A stretch of 64,000 nucleotides of DNA from Candidatus Latescibacterota bacterium. GTDB taxonomy: Bacteria > Latescibacterota > UBA2968. The stretch covers positions 4,128,001 through 4,192,000 of the forward strand of contig OZ242320.1 of the NCBI GenBank assembly GCA_965208125.1, in the 5' to 3' direction. How positions within the stretch are numbered: position 1 is the stretch's first letter; every line of letters starts with the position of its first letter. Position numbers and translations under genes: made by a program. This document shows positions 1-6,600 of this stretch, one piece after another. A model generated the notes under the pieces. That model ran no database searches. It was given only the letters and a program-made list of their open reading frames with translations, and had not been told where the DNA came from.

Positions 1-691
1 GCCAGCCCTTCATAAACATCGCACCACCAACAACTCCTACGCCCTCTTCTTCGGTAAGGGGAAGCAGAAAACGAGCAGCGTTGCGATAAATCGGATTGTA
101 TTGGTGTGCGACCATCATTGAGTCCAGTTCAGTGGCGCTGACCAGCCGAGCAAGGCGTCGTGCATCTTTACCAGTGATGCCGATGAAGCGTGCCTTGCCT
201 TGTTTCTTTGCAATGCGAAGAAACTCCAAACAAGGTGCCGCCGGAAAGTCATACTCTTCCTCGTCTATGATCAGCGGTCCTCCGTGGGATATGGCAATCT
301 CTTTAGGCACAGGATCATCTGACCACCACTTCCGCTGATCTGCCTCATGTAGCTGGATCAGATCCACATAGTCGGTCTGAAGTCTGCCCAGACTCTCTTC
401 AAATTGTCGCATGAGAGAATTGACTTTGCGGTGTCCTCCCGGATCTTCTACACCACCTACCTTGGTCGCCAAGAATACCTTTTCCCGGCGACCACGCAAT
501 GCCTCACCTAACATACGCTCATCTTTGCCTTTGCCATAGGCGGCAGCCGTATCGAAGTAATTGATCCCCCGGTCAACTGCCAGGGCAATACATTCGTTTA
601 CTCCCGGTTGGCCCTGGCCAGACATAAAAGCTGTGCCCAGGCCAAGTTCGCTGACATTCACTCCCGTATTTCCAAGTGCTCGACGCTTCAT
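1..691 (-). CDS. Aldo/keto reductase (3' end runs off the window; not in the ORF track)
   Basis: Manual translation from ATG 691 behind AAGGAG gives MKRRALGNTGVNVSELGLGT...GINYFDTAAAYG...KVFLATKVG...SLGRLQTDYVDLIQLHE, which are classic AKR motifs. Confidence 0.9.
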   Translation of the reverse strand, partial: MKRRALGNTGVNVSELGLGTAFMSGQGQPGVNECIALAVDRGINYFDTAAAYGKGKDERMLGEALRGRREKVFLATKVGGVEDPGGHRKVNSLMRQFEESLGRLQTDYVDLIQLHEADQRKWWSDDPVPKEIAISHGGPLIIDEEEYDFPAAPCLEFLRIAKKQGKARFIGITGKDARRLARLVSATELDSMMVAHQYNPIYRNAARFLLPLTEEEGVGVVGGAMFMKGW

Positions 692-3984: not shown

Positions 3985-4791
3985 TCACTTATCTCCATTT
4001 TTGGTAGCAATGAAGATCATCTCTTTTTCGTGTTCAGAATTCAGGGCCTCGTCTGTCCAATCGCCTTTGACATCGACATCTTGAAAGCCTGCCAATTCCA
4101 GCATCCACATCAGTTCATTTCGATGGTACCAGTGAGTCTGTCCGGTGTGAATCTCCTCCTTTATGAGCCGATCGCCTTCGTATAGTTCATATCGCCGTTC
4201 TCGGACAGCATATTGCGCCACCGTATCTTCAAAAATCTTGTGGTGGTAAACCAGTAGGCGCTTTCCGTCTTCAAGCTCCTTGTTGGCGATCTGTTTCCAT
4301 TCGCCGGGCCACGCGTGAATCTCTTTGGGGCCCCAGTAATAAAAACTATGGGCTGGGGCAACATTAAAGGCGAGAATCCCACCAGGCTCCAAATGAGCGT
4401 GGCATCGGCGGAGCGTTTCCAATGCCGCTCGCCGCCCCATTACACACTGGAAACCACCGCACGGGATATAGATGGCATTAAAACGATCGGGGAGATCCAA
4501 CTGCTGCATCTGCTGCTCGTAGAGCACGGGGTCCAGCCCCATCGCGTTCGCATGCTGGCGACATACAGATAGCATATCGCCCGAAATGTCCACCCCCTGT
4601 ACATCAAATCCTTCTTGCAAAAAGGTCAGTAGTAACCTCCCCGCTCCGCATCCCAGTTCCAGGGCCTTACTTCCAGCTTTCTCAAGGATGCCTTTGTAGA
4701 ATGACTTGTCTATGCGGGGATCTGACGTCGATATCGTAGCCCAATGAAGTGCGGAGAGTCCAGTGTACAGATCTCGTTCATCGAATTTCAT
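3985..4791 (-). CDS. Class I SAM-dependent methyltransferase
   Basis: LELGCGAGR, GVDIS and HLEPGG. Start placed at ATG 4791 (GAGG upstream). Paralog of 14261-15064. Confidence 0.9.
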   Translation of the reverse strand: MKFDERDLYTGLSALHWATISTSDPRIDKSFYKGILEKAGSKALELGCGAGRLLLTFLQEGFDVQGVDISGDMLSVCRQHANAMGLDPVLYEQQMQQLDLPDRFNAIYIPCGGFQCVMGRRAALETLRRCHAHLEPGGILAFNVAPAHSFYYWGPKEIHAWPGEWKQIANKELEDGKRLLVYHHKIFEDTVAQYAVRERRYELYEGDRLIKEEIHTGQTHWYHRNELMWMLELAGFQDVDVKGDWTDEALNSEHEKEMIFIATKNGDK

Positions 4792-4849
4792 GAAAATATC
4801 CTCATAAAGCGGAGACATTCAGTATCCGGGTTTTGTTTTTCCGCTTCAC

Positions 4850-5281
4850 TTTCCTGTAGGAAGCCCCGTCCTTTGGGCGTGGTCAGAGATAGTTGGCTTT
4901 GCCGTTAAGCCGTTTTGTGGGTATATTTCGCAGGTGCTATCGTAGCGCACACAAAGGCACTCTCTTTTGAGAGTAAACGGTTTCGGTGTGGGATAGCACA
5001 CAAAACCCTCTCTGTGATGTTAGTTGAGAGGCAGATTTGGCAACAACAGCGGTATGGATTGCGGTTGTGTTGTCGTCAAATCTGATGGGCATAGTTAGGG
5101 GCCTGACCTCCCAAACCTGCGGTAGCAATCCGCTGCTGTCAACTGCCCTGAAGTCTCGCCACGCAGTGAGCGGTTTAAACCTAAGCCCTTGCTCGGATAT
5201 GCTGCATTGCCTCCAATGGGTGGGTCAAGCACCTGGGGGTGTGGCAGGGACAAGCCACCTGCTCAGCAGGTGGTGGTTGAC
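4850..5281 (+). mobile_element. Non-autonomous, ORF-less IS200/IS605-family element
   Basis: Left end: TCAC (4846-4849), then GAAG and hairpin CCCCGTCC-TTT-GGGCGTGG. Right end: CAAG, hairpin CCACCTGC-TCA-GCAGGTGG and terminal TGAC (5278-5281). Removing the element restores GGG AAT CTT TTG TGA, a stop codon for the neighbouring gene. Confidence 0.85.
4911..5281 (+). ncRNA. Long structured RNA, TnpB omegaRNA-like, inside the IS200/IS605 derivative
   Basis: Several stems with G-U pairs on the + strand, e.g. CAGATTTGGC/GTCAAATCTG, GTTTTGTG/CACAAAAC, GTGCTA/TAGCGC and GGGCA-TAGTT/AACTGCCC. Internal GTCAAC (5138-5143) is complementary to terminal GTTGAC (5276-5281). Confidence 0.6.
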
Positions 5282-6492
5282 AAAAGATTCCCTTGTGCGC
5301 GGGAATTGTGGCCTATCACCGTGATCGGCTCGGTCATTCCTATACAGACATTGCCACTCACAAGGTTCCAGTCACTGTGACCACTCTCGACGATGCCCCG
5401 CGTCTGGCACGGTGTGTCCCCCCCAACAGTCGAAGATTTGTCAACATCATCGGCGCAACGGTTGCCCTGGACAAGAAATCTTTTGACATTATGCAGGCGC
5501 AGAGCGGGATAAGCTCCTGGCTTCTTCCAGGAATTACTCCGAAGGATGTTCCCGACGATCACATGTTCCACGCCATCGCTTGCGTTAATGCCCCACTTGC
5601 CATTCTCTGAGCACACATTGTTGCTGATGATGTTGTGATGATCCTCCCCATGCCCTACGCCGCCGATGCCACTGTGTTCGTTGCCTGTGAACACACTGTC
5701 GCTACATATAGAGTCGCGCACATGGCCGCAGAAGTACAGACCGTCTCCGCCGTTTCCTATGGCGATGTTGTGTGACCAAATGCTGCGTTCTATACCAGTG
5801 CCGGGGTGATATCCGTGTCCGCGACAAAAGCGAACCTGACAGTGGGTGACCTGCACATCCGATCCGCCCTGCACGCTGATGCCGTCACTCGGCCAGTCGA
5901 TGACCGCTACATTCTGGATGCGTACACCTCTACAGTAGATAGTGTGTACAGCGCTGTAAGTGAAGTCTTGCCACCAGCGCCCTTTGGGATCTCTTGACCC
6001 GCGCAGCGTCAAATCGCGTAAGCTCACGTCGTCTCTCCCGACAGCGGTAATACCAGGGAAGAGGCCGACGATCTGGGCTTCCTCTTTTACCCTCAGGCCT
6101 CTGTTCAGTGGCTCACTCAAGCGAACGAGGTTGCCCTTTACCGACTTCACCCGTGCGTGGGTCCCATCCCACCATTGGCGAGGACGGTCGGTCAGCCCGA
6201 CGCCATCGTCTGCTACAAAGGGCACTCGTCCACGCAAGTAGATGCTGCGGGAACCTTTGCGTGCATCTCGAATCAGGAACAGCGCTCTGGGTGTAGCTAT
6301 CGACAGTTCAGTAGCTGATCCATCGCCGATGAGGCTCACGCCACTTCGGAGGACAATCGACTGACGTAGCTGCCATTTGCCTGCTGGAATCCGGACGCTC
6401 CCACCTCGCTCGCCAAGGGCGTCAATCGCCTCCTGAATCCCCGAGGTAGCCGAATCCTGATCGAGAGATGCCGTGATTATTTTGCTCATCAC
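5263..6492 (-). CDS. Right-handed parallel beta-helix protein (pectin lyase-like fold)
   Basis: IQEAIDAL...GG.V.IPAG N-terminus and repeated N/G-rich beta-helix rungs (NIAIGNGGDG, NNVCSENGKWGI). The last 5 residues come from the IS end. Confidence 0.85.
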   Translation of the reverse strand: MMSKIITASLDQDSATSGIQEAIDALGERGGSVRIPAGKWQLRQSIVLRSGVSLIGDGSATELSIATPRALFLIRDARKGSRSIYLRGRVPFVADDGVGLTDRPRQWWDGTHARVKSVKGNLVRLSEPLNRGLRVKEEAQIVGLFPGITAVGRDDVSLRDLTLRGSRDPKGRWWQDFTYSAVHTIYCRGVRIQNVAVIDWPSDGISVQGGSDVQVTHCQVRFCRGHGYHPGTGIERSIWSHNIAIGNGGDGLYFCGHVRDSICSDSVFTGNEHSGIGGVGHGEDHHNIISNNVCSENGKWGINASDGVEHVIVGNILRSNSWKKPGAYPALRLHNVKRFLVQGNRCADDVDKSSTVGGDTPCQTRGIVESGHSDWNLVSGNVCIGMTEPITVIGHNSRAQGNLLSTTTC

Positions 6493-6600
6493 GGGTTTTC
6501 AGTACCTTTCATCAAAGTCTGTATTCCACAATCGAACCGTATTCCTGAGATCGGGGCATCAATAGAGCATACGCTCTCGCCTTGTCTTGTTTTTCGTTTT

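Follow-up and report, generated by a model that had tools for sequence, protein, structure and literature searches.

Palindrome-associated transposable elements (PATEs) of G. stearothermophilus are described in a preprint (bioRxiv 10.1101/2023.03.14.532601) as ORF-less derivatives of IS200/IS605 elements which "often encode omegaRNAs" that are acted on in trans by TnpB. A similar element was found in a window of 64,000 nucleotides from a Candidatus Latescibacterota bacterium (genome G000, assembly GCA_965208125.1; contig OZ242320.1, positions 4,128,001 to 4,192,000). It resembles PATEs in having no ORF, in target-specific insertion without duplication, in a right end with an omegaRNA-like scaffold and in subterminal hairpins that tnpB-only and tnpA-bearing elements in these genomes also possess. 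It differs from them in a scaffold about twice the size of the module of the cognate tnpB elements (197 versus 88–114 nt), in a 183-nt structured domain without other matches that precedes this scaffold, and in its host, a member of a sponge-associated Latescibacterota genus whose genome here lacks the nuclease. According to a review of prokaryotic omegaRNAs, the 3' end of the scaffold forms a pseudoknot (PMC13565253). As in the TnpB omegaRNA (reRNA) of IS200/IS605 elements such as ISDra2, the candidate RNA considered here is placed at the right end in the tnpB-sense direction, and the letters at its 3' end are complementary to a loop further upstream; the candidate scaffold would likewise stop at the transposon boundary, take its guide from the flank and have a TAM identical to the transposon target. 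Unlike the ISDra2 RNA, it overlaps no tnpB gene, is much longer and matches no Rfam model.

Two further systems offer comparisons. The cleavage sites of IS608 from H. pylori are recognised by DNA guides, at guide and cleavage positions as found here; its words are TTAC/TCAA with guide AAAG, and its cleavage sites are 19 and 10 nt from the hairpin feet (PMC3201880). The present element likewise has guide tetranucleotides 5' of the hairpin feet, a left cleavage site outside and a right one inside the element, and a fixed short target word, 3' of which it inserts, but it combines TCAC/TGAC with GAAG/CAAG, and the distances from cleavage site to hairpin foot are 14 and 8 nt. The right guide of IS608 is reportedly GAAT. 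An ORF-less PATE with IStron ends has been described from C. difficile (bioRxiv 10.1101/2023.11.20.567912) and is likewise an IS605-family element whose ends enclose a large structured RNA; that RNA is a group I intron, whereas here no intron model matched and the letters at the boundaries are not those of one. ORF-less IS200/IS605 guide-RNA elements are in print, though scarcely characterised, and among the literature searched only two preprints, both from one laboratory, link PATEs, TnpB and guide RNAs.

The element occupies 432 nt (4850–5281, + strand) and its features are collected in Table 1. An empty-site allele (L035) in the sister genome G017 shares its left flank with the window and reads ...ccgcttcac directly followed by AGAAGATTCCC, TTCAC being joined without a scar to the right flank, so that the insert is exactly 4850–5281 and no target sequence was duplicated. 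The flanks of the 12 full-length copies (the window copy, L003, L002, L014, L004, L015, L005, L052, L053, L006, L007 and L008) are unrelated to one another, yet all 12 are directly preceded by TCAC (4846–4849) and all end in GTTGAC; the base before TCAC is T in 11 copies (TTCAC) and A in L053 (ATCAC). The copies and the exact empty site confirm the identity and boundaries proposed in the initial annotation, which had been made from the sequence of this stretch alone. That annotation also placed the insertion at a stop codon of a beta-helix gene, with removal of the element restoring GNLL-TGA, and the empty-site allele reads so: the encoded C-terminus changes from GNLL-TGA in G017 to GNLLSTTTC in the window, and the TCA within TTCAC (4845–4849) corresponds, on the opposite strand, to the TGA at which the gene originally stopped. 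The present stop codon of this minus-strand gene is the TCA of the right-end hairpin loop (5263–5265), where the ORF ends at 5263. The flank at 5282–5301 is antisense to the final codons of the gene.

Table 1. Features of the ORF-less element and its surroundings (positions in the 64,000-nt window)
Feature	Position	Strand	Basis or remark
Whole ORF-less IS200/IS605-type (PATE-like) element	4850..5281	+	unrelated flanks, exact empty site, no conserved ORF
Target pentanucleotide TTCAC; left cleavage site, expected TAM	4845..4849	+	kept in empty site L035
GAAG, candidate left DNA guide, 5' of hairpin foot	4860..4863	+	fits TCAC, pairing g1:c2, g2:c1, A.A, g4:c4
Left-end (LE) subterminal hairpin, stem CCCCGTCC/GGGCGTGG, loop TTT	4864..4882	+	helix 2 of the fold
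Promoter-like site TTGCCG-17-TATATT, just past the left end	4899..4927	+	9/12 matches; shuffles average 0.6 sites
Middle domain, ORF-less copies only; three-tier hairpin 4935–4998, hairpin 5007–5031, long hairpin 5032–5084	4905..5087	+	alignment A2, model R1
3' domain, expanded homologue of the right-end/omegaRNA module of tnpB elements	5085..5281	+	model R2
GUCAAC, candidate pseudoknot strand 1	5138..5143	+	invariant, 10/10 aligned ORF-less copies (alignment A1)
CAAG, candidate right DNA guide, 5' of right-end hairpin	5251..5254	+	fits TGAC, same pairing scheme
Right-end (RE) subterminal hairpin	5254..5274	+	helix 20, 2 pairs changed on both sides
GUUGAC, element end, holds right cleavage site TGAC (5278–5281); candidate pseudoknot strand 2	5276..5281	+	invariant, 12/12 copies
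Flank, would-be guide if the RNA serves as omegaRNA	5282..5301	+	position beside the element end
Host gene, right-handed beta-helix protein	5263..6492	-	Pfam Beta_helix and NosD; empty-site alleles

No tnpA or tnpB is present within 4850–5281, as had been annotated. Comparison of the element by blastx with the TnpB proteins of its relatives gave a match to the non-coding LE and weak matches at E 0.05–0.2 only, and no ORF is conserved across the subfamilies of ORF-less copies. A small encoded protein was considered and rejected, the ORFs differing in frame and extent from one subfamily to another.

Both subterminal hairpins, on one strand, are preserved in 10/10 aligned copies, and the LE hairpin recurs in the tnpB elements of group A as well as in L074, which carries tnpA only. 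Under the IS608-type register the first guide letter pairs with the second cleavage letter, the second guide letter with the first, and the fourth letters with each other, with an A.A between (g1:c2, g2:c1, A.A, g4:c4). The guide/cleavage pairs found across related ends are GAAG/TCAC, CAAG/TGAC, AAAG/TTAC and AAAC/TTAG; that the first letter of the guide changes together with the second of the cleavage word is seen from AAAG/TTAC and AAAC/TTAG in related ends. At the fourth guide letter the fit is full in one of three group A left ends (L009), with a G-T wobble in L018 and a mismatch in L016. The hairpins at both ends, and GAAG and CAAG as matches of TCAC and TGAC, had been recognised previously; the positions given for TCAC and TGAC stand, and the co-variation in related ends supports the guide assignment.

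Relatives of about 1.26 kb have the left end (85% over 4845–4908) and the right end in common with the element and encode tnpB only. Their 363-aa TnpB matches PF07282 (85 bits) and PF01385 (31 bits), so that of the nucleases suggested earlier for same-end relatives it is TnpB, and not IscB or IsrB, that is found. An IscB/IsrB omegaRNA (HEARO) identity was rejected, as there is no HEARO match on the element and the relatives encode TnpB. L074, in genome G006, is IS200-like; its left-end hairpin is the same, its right end is related, and its 154-aa ORF matches PF01797 (141 bits). A cognate TnpB (E<=1e-40) is encoded in 13 of the 21 genomes of the genus, including five of the eight that carry the ORF-less element.

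With 50 candidates per genome scored, 13 copies were found in 8 of the 53 genomes of the order, all belonging to genus g1 of Candidatus Latescibacterota from sponges; the 13th copy (L051) lacks the first 29 nt. In these 53 genomes model R1 of the middle domain matched the 13 ORF-less copies alone, and in G000, where the element is present as a single copy, R1 matched only the element among 150 scored of about 2500 candidates. The proposal that copies would have different flanks, each preceded by TCAC, thus proved correct across genomes (12/12 full-length copies) but not within G000. An exact-pattern scan of species-representative genomes, which misses diverged relatives, yielded 11 true matches, all in Candidatus Latescibacterota; a further match, within a permease gene in a MAG of the Pseudomonadales, was set aside as due to chance. 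The same type of scan gave one chance match and nothing else in metagenomes, and a scan of viral contigs gave 0 matches.

Most copies are 98–99% identical to one another, and the ORF-less copies form two subfamilies with 66% identity. Between G011 and G013, orthologous copies share 94.8% identity, with flanks at 89%, and the window and G007 copies share 98.1%, with the adjoining gene at 96%. Copies lie in both orientations and show no consistent pattern relative to neighbouring genes. Three sites in G000 were examined and rejected as empty sites: that of L015 has diverged and TTCAC is absent, whilst those of L002 and L004 hold 0.8–1.1 kb of other DNA, which was read as the trace of deletions next to the element in the genome that carries it.

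The element folds into a consensus structure consisting of a row of hairpins and multiloops. Changes on both sides were found in 21 of its 114 pairs, compared with 1–6 when partners were slid, in sequences representing about four lineages (main group, L052, L053 and L006–8) from which the structure itself was also derived. In total, 98.8% of cells are paired versus 40–47% with slid partners, and 0/500 shuffles attained the observed values. Each sequence contains 14–21 G-U pairs, which fit the + strand only and become A-C mismatches on the opposite strand. These data bear out the interior stems with + strand G-U pairs of the initial annotation and add compensatory changes to them. The middle domain, noted there as an extra 5' domain of ~170 nt, is real at ~180 nt: its helices 5–11 account for 13 of the 21 doubly changed pairs, and the 183 nt (4905–5087) match nothing outside the ORF-less copies (model R1, 13 matches), being absent from the tnpB relatives.

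The 3' domain consists of a multiloop stem (5087–5091/5144–5148) around hairpins 5094–5116 and 5119–5139, and a long-range stem (5153–5162/5241–5251) around two hairpins. Model R2, built on these 197 nt (5085–5281), matched 11/11 tested right ends of tnpB elements at E 6e-13 to 1.7e-8, nine of them scoring 38–44 bits and two at contig ends about 30. In the R2 alignment the stems, the GUCAAC loop, the right-end hairpin and GUUGAC all line up with the tnpB elements, a homology to their right-end/omegaRNA region that supports the earlier proposal of an omegaRNA-like RNA. By nhmmer, 5136–5164 aligned to group B (E 0.014). Compared with the tnpB right ends, the ORF-less copies alone have two expansions (46 versus 3 nt and 86 versus 20 nt). 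Genus-wide R2 scores are bimodal, the 13 ORF-less copies scoring 196–241 bits and all others 21–44 bits, and on these scores no tnpB-linked right end has the expansions.

In the aligned tnpB-element 3' ends GUCAAC lies within the loop of a short stem, and in all aligned copies and relatives it is complementary to GUUGAC. A pseudoknot between the two is a candidate suggested by homology and the invariant motifs; it shows no covariation because its letters never vary. The tnpB element L009 ends GTTGAT, with which a G-U pair to GUCAAC is still possible. The letters of the candidate pseudoknot are also constrained as a transposase cleavage site.

The promoter-like site inside the left end has a counterpart in the tnpB relative L009, TTGACA-16-TATAGT at the corresponding place, and the same scan found none in subfamily 2. 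A start predicted from it would be near 4934, downstream of the beginnings of three RNA-library contigs. Contigs from four metatranscriptome runs of three studies cover the element from 4890, 4895, 4919 or 4950 to 5249 or 5281, although as assemblies they show no strand, true ends or levels and RNA libraries may contain DNA. Some contigs start inside a copy and bridge the right end, extending 119 nt and 42 nt past other copies and, at the present locus, into 5282–5803. Contig cover is low over 4850–4893 and the flanks, and the high-depth contigs start at 4890–4919. Contig depth is unlike inside and outside the element, contigs being uninformative as to levels.

Partners for the element were sought in G000. 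There was no cognate TnpB at E<=1e-40, the best tblastn match being 37% identical over residues 158–374, the C-terminal half, and R2 gave no match at the ends of the nine TnpB loci that this genome does possess. Nor was a TnpA element with matching hairpins found, the tnpA-bearing IS605 copies of G000 differing in hairpins and ends. Two other element-bearing genomes, G007 (a draft of 280 contigs) and G020, likewise lack a cognate TnpB at E<=1e-40. Since neither cognate TnpB nor matching TnpA element was found in G000, the window copy is most likely a recent orphan, and a trans-acting guide-RNA locus, as initially annotated, has no evident partner in this genome. The suggestion of a possible new RNA class was also too strong, PATEs encoding omegaRNAs used in trans being already in print; the present case is an enlarged, lineage-restricted variant. 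None of the three findings that would have contradicted the initial annotation was obtained: copies and empty sites exist, there is covariation in the stems, and the interior gives no significant alignment to tnpB.

These data are best explained by a PATE-like non-autonomous element, restricted to one Latescibacterota genus, with a stand-alone enlarged omegaRNA, a reading that we consider likely. Transposition would have proceeded through single-stranded DNA, with insertion 3' of TTCAC and no duplication, a Y1 TnpA supplied in trans presumably recognising both subterminal hairpins and the adjacent guide tetranucleotides. Its + strand would give rise to a structured RNA of roughly 390–410 nt, of which the last ~200 nt would represent the expanded scaffold of the tnpB-only elements, ending in GUUGAC, which can pair with the loop GUCAAC, and transcription would continue past GUUGAC into the flank. 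Guide activity of this RNA is a candidate function suggested by homology and invariant motifs. Where a cognate TnpB is present, TnpB with the element RNA in trans would cut the element-free allele (TTCAC plus flank), which would regain the element through repair templated by the sister copy. In this way the element would parasitise TnpB as well as TnpA. The middle domain of 183 nt, like the two expansions, appears to be an addition of the ORF-less copies maintained by selection on RNA structure; a role in stability or in competition for TnpB is a guess. It is also conceivable, if rather doubtful, that the 183-nt 5' domain and two expansions constitute a distinct omegaRNA architecture acting as a guide-RNA hyperparasite of TnpB elements. 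The enlarged RNA might then give the element an advantage over the guide RNA that belongs to the nuclease, or allow it to persist in the absence of co-translational loading, and such an architecture could have evolved because the scaffold was freed from coding sequence.

The element could instead be an inert relic, a MITE-like passenger moved by TnpA in which any RNA has no role and conservation reflects recent spread and the needs of single-stranded DNA. The single copy of G000 without cognate TnpB or matching TnpA is consistent with this, as are the 98–99% identity of most copies, which are therefore young, the 5' truncation of L051 and the internal deletion of the tnpB relative L055. However, subfamilies only 66% identical hold one fold by means of the 21 doubly changed pairs, some of them in the interior far from the ends; the abundant G-U pairs suit RNA rather than DNA; orthologous copies are better conserved than their flanks; and the element is found in RNA libraries of three studies. 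An inert relic is considered unlikely.

Somewhat less probable again is an RNA that works without TnpB guidance, be it as a decoy against resident omegaRNAs, as an antisense regulator of the adjoining gene or as an RNA that processes itself or resembles an intron, as IStrons do. In favour of this, no tnpB-linked right end has the middle domain or either expansion, a transcript of the element would run antisense to the beta-helix gene at its 3' end, and the C. difficile element sets a precedent for IStron (group I intron) ends on a PATE that has no ORF. However, copies lie in either orientation beside genes, and the row of hairpins and multiloops lacks the long-range core of group I introns. 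Group I introns have a U before the 5' splice site and a G at the 3' end; here a C precedes the element (4849) and a C ends it (5281). A sensitive-mode search of Rfam, group I introns and small ribozymes included, gave no match at E<=1 in window positions 4000–6500, which also covers the models named for a check in the initial annotation (IS605-orfB-I/II, HEARO, group I intron), and the relatives L006, L053, L009 and L010 behaved likewise save for a wrong-strand HEARO match in L010 (E 0.38). That match, a Hairpin ribozyme match at E 4.4 and an HgcC match at E 3.4 were rejected as chance-level. A group I intron or IStron identity was rejected on the boundary letters and on the Rfam result, with no match at E<=10 for the window region or at E<=1 for the relatives.

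That the element is a simple internal-deletion derivative, its interior being decayed tnpB coding sequence with no distinct RNA domain, is very improbable: internal deletions are known in the family (L055), 5024–5071 has weak translated similarity to TnpB residues of about 56–72 (E 0.05–0.2) and nhmmer profile positions 157–198 align to tnpB coding sequence at E 0.48, but all such matches are non-significant, the Smith-Waterman score of the interior against a full tnpB element is 31 (shuffles 25.7 +/- 3.5, maximum 43), the profile search recovers the ends and 287–315 only, model R1 gave no significant match to loci of tnpB or tnpA (E 0.12 at best), and substitutions compensate for stems whilst frames are lost.

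The family offers a clean natural case: its boundaries are exact, empty sites are known, partners with tnpA only and with tnpB only exist, compensatory changes separate two diverged subfamilies, and RNA libraries lend support. It suggests that a guide scaffold, once freed from an overlapping tnpB frame, can grow to twice its size and acquire a new domain on its 5' side. Should this RNA indeed be used by the cognate TnpB, the expansions would mark positions at which a scaffold tolerates large insertions, which would be useful for engineering compact editors, and the element would be a parasite of a parasite; if it does not, a conserved RNA of 390 nt calls for another explanation.

The initial annotation had placed the element at 4850..5281 on the grounds that its removal restores a GNLL-TGA ending to the neighbouring gene, and empty-site alleles in relatives bear this out. 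The host genome (G000) is a 5.75-Mb single contig in which the window occupies G000:C1:4128001-4192000, and window positions 4819-5262 are flanked by two minus-strand genes. The same site carries the element in G007 and is empty in G017 (locus L035), where an identical left flank ends TTCAC and is followed directly by AGAAGATTCCC; it is also empty in G015, G006, G020 and G012, with slightly different left sides. Because the G017 allele joins TTCAC directly to the right flank, the insert is exactly 4850-5281, without duplication. The beta-helix gene originally stopped at a TGA complementary to the TCA within the target; it now reads through GTTGAC to a stop in the loop of the right-end hairpin, altering the C-terminus from GNLL to GNLLSTTTC.

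Features at the insertion site and modelled parts of the element (window coordinates)
Feature	Position	Strand	Remark
Methyltransferase gene	3985-4818	-	one side of 4819-5262
Promoter-like site TTGCCG-17-TATATT	4899-4927	+	counterpart TTGACA-16-TATAGT at the matching place in a tnpB relative
Middle 5' domain (covariance model R1)	4905-5087	+	
3' module (covariance model R2)	5085-5281	+	
Right-handed beta-helix protein gene	5263-6492	-	other side of 4819-5262

A BLAST search with 4840-5290 returned only the element itself from G000. Across G000 and 60 relatives, full-length copies were found in G005, G007, G015 and G017 (88-99% identical) and in G011, G013 and G020 (~70%), with many further matches that cover only ~60 nt at the left end or ~75 nt at the right end. 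Flanks of the copies are unrelated and similarity ends at the same two points. As predicted for copies elsewhere, all 12 full-length copies, the window's included, follow TCAC (TTCAC in 11, ATCAC in L053), and all end in GTTGAC; a 13th, L051, lacks the first 29 nt. Near-identical copies were found in Candidatus Latescibacterota MAGs, and most public sequencing runs containing the stretch come from sponge or marine metagenomes. Two copies, L052 (G015:C1:1821442-1821876) and L006 (G020:C1:3519936-3520377), occupy a TTCAC site common to two species with right flanks 91% identical, yet belong to different subfamilies and are only 66% identical, which points to a second hit or replacement at one site, not divergence in place; this junction is also carried by RNA-library contigs. 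Beside copy L004, G017 lacks 809 bp present in G000 (G000:C1:4658946-4659756), among them the first part of a sulfatase-like gene; the G000 right junction at the matching site is TTCAC and then the same flank, and the missing stretch is read as a deletion adjoining the element. The L002 site differs similarly from G000, by ~1.1 kb. In L053 (G015), positions 9-61 (-), ~500 bp from the element copy, match the Rfam DUF3800-VI RNA (40.2 bits vs gathering score 35).

Guide tetranucleotides at both ends lie 5' of the hairpin feet and fit their cleavage words as proposed: the left end combines GAAG with TCAC, the right end CAAG with TGAC. AAAG occurs with TTAC at the right end of L074, a tnpA-only relative, and at related ends L105-L107 and L109; the L074 left end has AAAC with TTAG under one reading of its boundary. 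Guide letter 1 and cleavage letter 2 therefore co-vary across related ends (G:C, C:G, A:T). At the left ends of one group of tnpB relatives (group A) guide letter 4 fully fits in only one of three. The base-by-base register of guide and cleavage words, and the right guide, are familiar from IS608. Guides 5' of the hairpin foot and the IS608 words AAAG, TTAC and TCAA have been described (PMC3201880). At 4866, in the left-end hairpin stem, the window copy, L004, L007 and L008 carry C, so that one stem position is a C-T mismatch, and most copies carry A. L105-L109 (G014, G006, G009, G003) form a further right-end class with AAAG, a CCACCCGC...GCGGGTGG hairpin and the end GTTTAC or GTTTAT, without a GUCAAC-type loop upstream; they may represent further members of the same superfamily, ORF-less or tnpA-type.

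The ORF-less copies fall into two subfamilies, 64-69% identical, which have no ORF in common, and 4909-5135 had no significant similarity to tnpB coding sequence in profile and pairwise searches, in agreement with an interior lacking tnpA and tnpB. RNAalifold, applied to 10 non-redundant copies (463 columns), gave 114 pairs in 20 helices, 21 of the pairs persisting after changes on both sides, in a structure derived from the same sequences and only ~4 lineages. Paired cells amounted to 98.8%, vs 40-47% when partners were slid by 1-3 columns, sliding left 1-6 both-sides-changed pairs, and none of 500 column shuffles equalled the real alignment in percentage paired, pair count or covariation score. 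The 14-21 G-U pairs of each sequence would be A-C on the opposite strand, and the fold thus belongs to the + strand (the tnpB strand in relatives), as the initial annotation had held. Single-sequence folding energies separate the strands (-176.8 vs -149.9 kcal/mol); z-scores (-2.68 and -2.82) do not.

Two modules were distinguished within this RNA. R2 gives a match at each of the 11 right ends of tnpB elements tested (E 6e-13 to 1.7e-8), with a short stem with GUCAAC loop, a long-range stem, the right-end hairpin and the terminal GUUGAC in correspondence, and ORF-less copies carry expansions relative to tnpB elements (46 vs 3 nt, 86 vs 20 nt). R2 scores across the genus are bimodal, 196-241 bits over 195-201 nt for 13 ORF-less copies and 21-44 bits over 87-139 nt for all other matches; the 3' module, too, exceeds the cognate tnpB form in size. 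R1 had no match in tnpB and tnpA loci (best E 0.12); in G000 it hit the element alone (a first look scoring 150 of ~2500 candidates), and only the 13 copies in the order (8 of 53 genomes, 50 candidates scored per genome). Since R1 found ORF-less copies only, similarity to tnpB was not significant and no Rfam family matches the element, the extra 5' domain is real. Palindrome-associated transposable elements (PATEs) bearing an omegaRNA, the TnpB guide RNA, are already in print, and the element is of the same kind (bioRxiv 10.1101/2023.03.14.532601); a PATE that lacks an ORF and carries an intron as its large structured RNA has also been published (bioRxiv 10.1101/2023.11.20.567912). In the literature found on PATEs, TnpB and guide RNAs, whose supplements may list such cases, the feature not found described is the PATE-specific enlarged scaffold with its own 5' domain.

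Relatives with the same ends encode either TnpB or a Y1 transposase. Group A elements (~1.26 kb; G006, G013, G005) are ~85% identical to the element at 4845-4908 and share its right end, and group B elements (G009, G003, G007, G015, G017) match it at 5210-5281 (74-77%). In both, the sole coding gene is a TnpB of ~363 aa (PF07282, 85 bits; PF01385, 31 bits), 88-90% identical between groups, whose closest solved relatives are TnpB/Cas12f-type proteins. L074 (G006), an IS200-like element of ~0.7 kb, has a 154-aa Y1 transposase (PF01797, 141 bits) between the element's left-end hairpin and a related right end. Their related ends therefore unite tnpA-only, tnpB-only and ORF-less forms in one family, the same three-form constellation as described in G. 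stearothermophilus (bioRxiv 10.1101/2023.03.14.532601). One group B element, L055 (G017:C1:936914-937728), is internally deleted, TnpB residues 1 to 207-219 abutting the right end, and at L081/L012 (G001:C1:3034383-3034742), a decayed autonomous copy, a family left-end match adjoins a tnpA frame with two stop codons.

In four metatranscriptome runs, drawn from three studies, assembled contigs cover 4890-5132, 4919-5132, 4895-5249 and 4950-5281. Position 5281 is crossed by three contigs, of which two reach 119 nt into the L052 flank and one 42 nt into another flank; at the window's own site, two further RNA-library contigs extend from 5115 into the beta-helix gene. RNA libraries thus contain molecules that join the middle and 3' modules, and molecules that cross the right end; strand, transcript ends and levels cannot be read from contigs, and such libraries may contain DNA. 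The promoter-like site was not found in the second subfamily by the same scan.

The suggestion of a trans-acting guide-RNA locus held in part, the 3' module being homologous to tnpB right ends but G000 containing no cognate TnpB (best match 37% identity). As R2 also has no match at the nine other TnpB loci of G000, and the element's hairpins and end words differ from those of the 379-aa TnpB family and the two tnpA-bearing IS605 copies of this genome, the window copy is probably a recent orphan. Five copies of that different 379-aa family, one truncated (L021-L025; G000:C1 216726, 1764805, 1663411, 166292, 1381391), have a right-end CCCAAC...GTTGGG hairpin and terminal GTAGTCAC, and their hairpins resemble those of the two tnpA+tnpB IS605 copies (L026/L031, L029/L030). 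In favour of a TnpB-dependent working, 13 of the 21 genomes of the genus, and 5 of the 8 with the element, contain cognate TnpB. Orthologous copies show higher identity than the sequence around them (G011/G013, 94.8% vs 89%; window/G007, 98.1% vs 96%). By homology with the tnpB elements and the published model (bioRxiv 10.1101/2023.03.14.532601), it is most likely that the RNA would end in scaffold GUUGAC and run on into the flank, that cognate TnpB with this RNA would cut the TTCAC-adjacent empty site after TnpA-mediated excision, and that a sister copy would then restore the element, which would rely on both TnpA and TnpB in trans.
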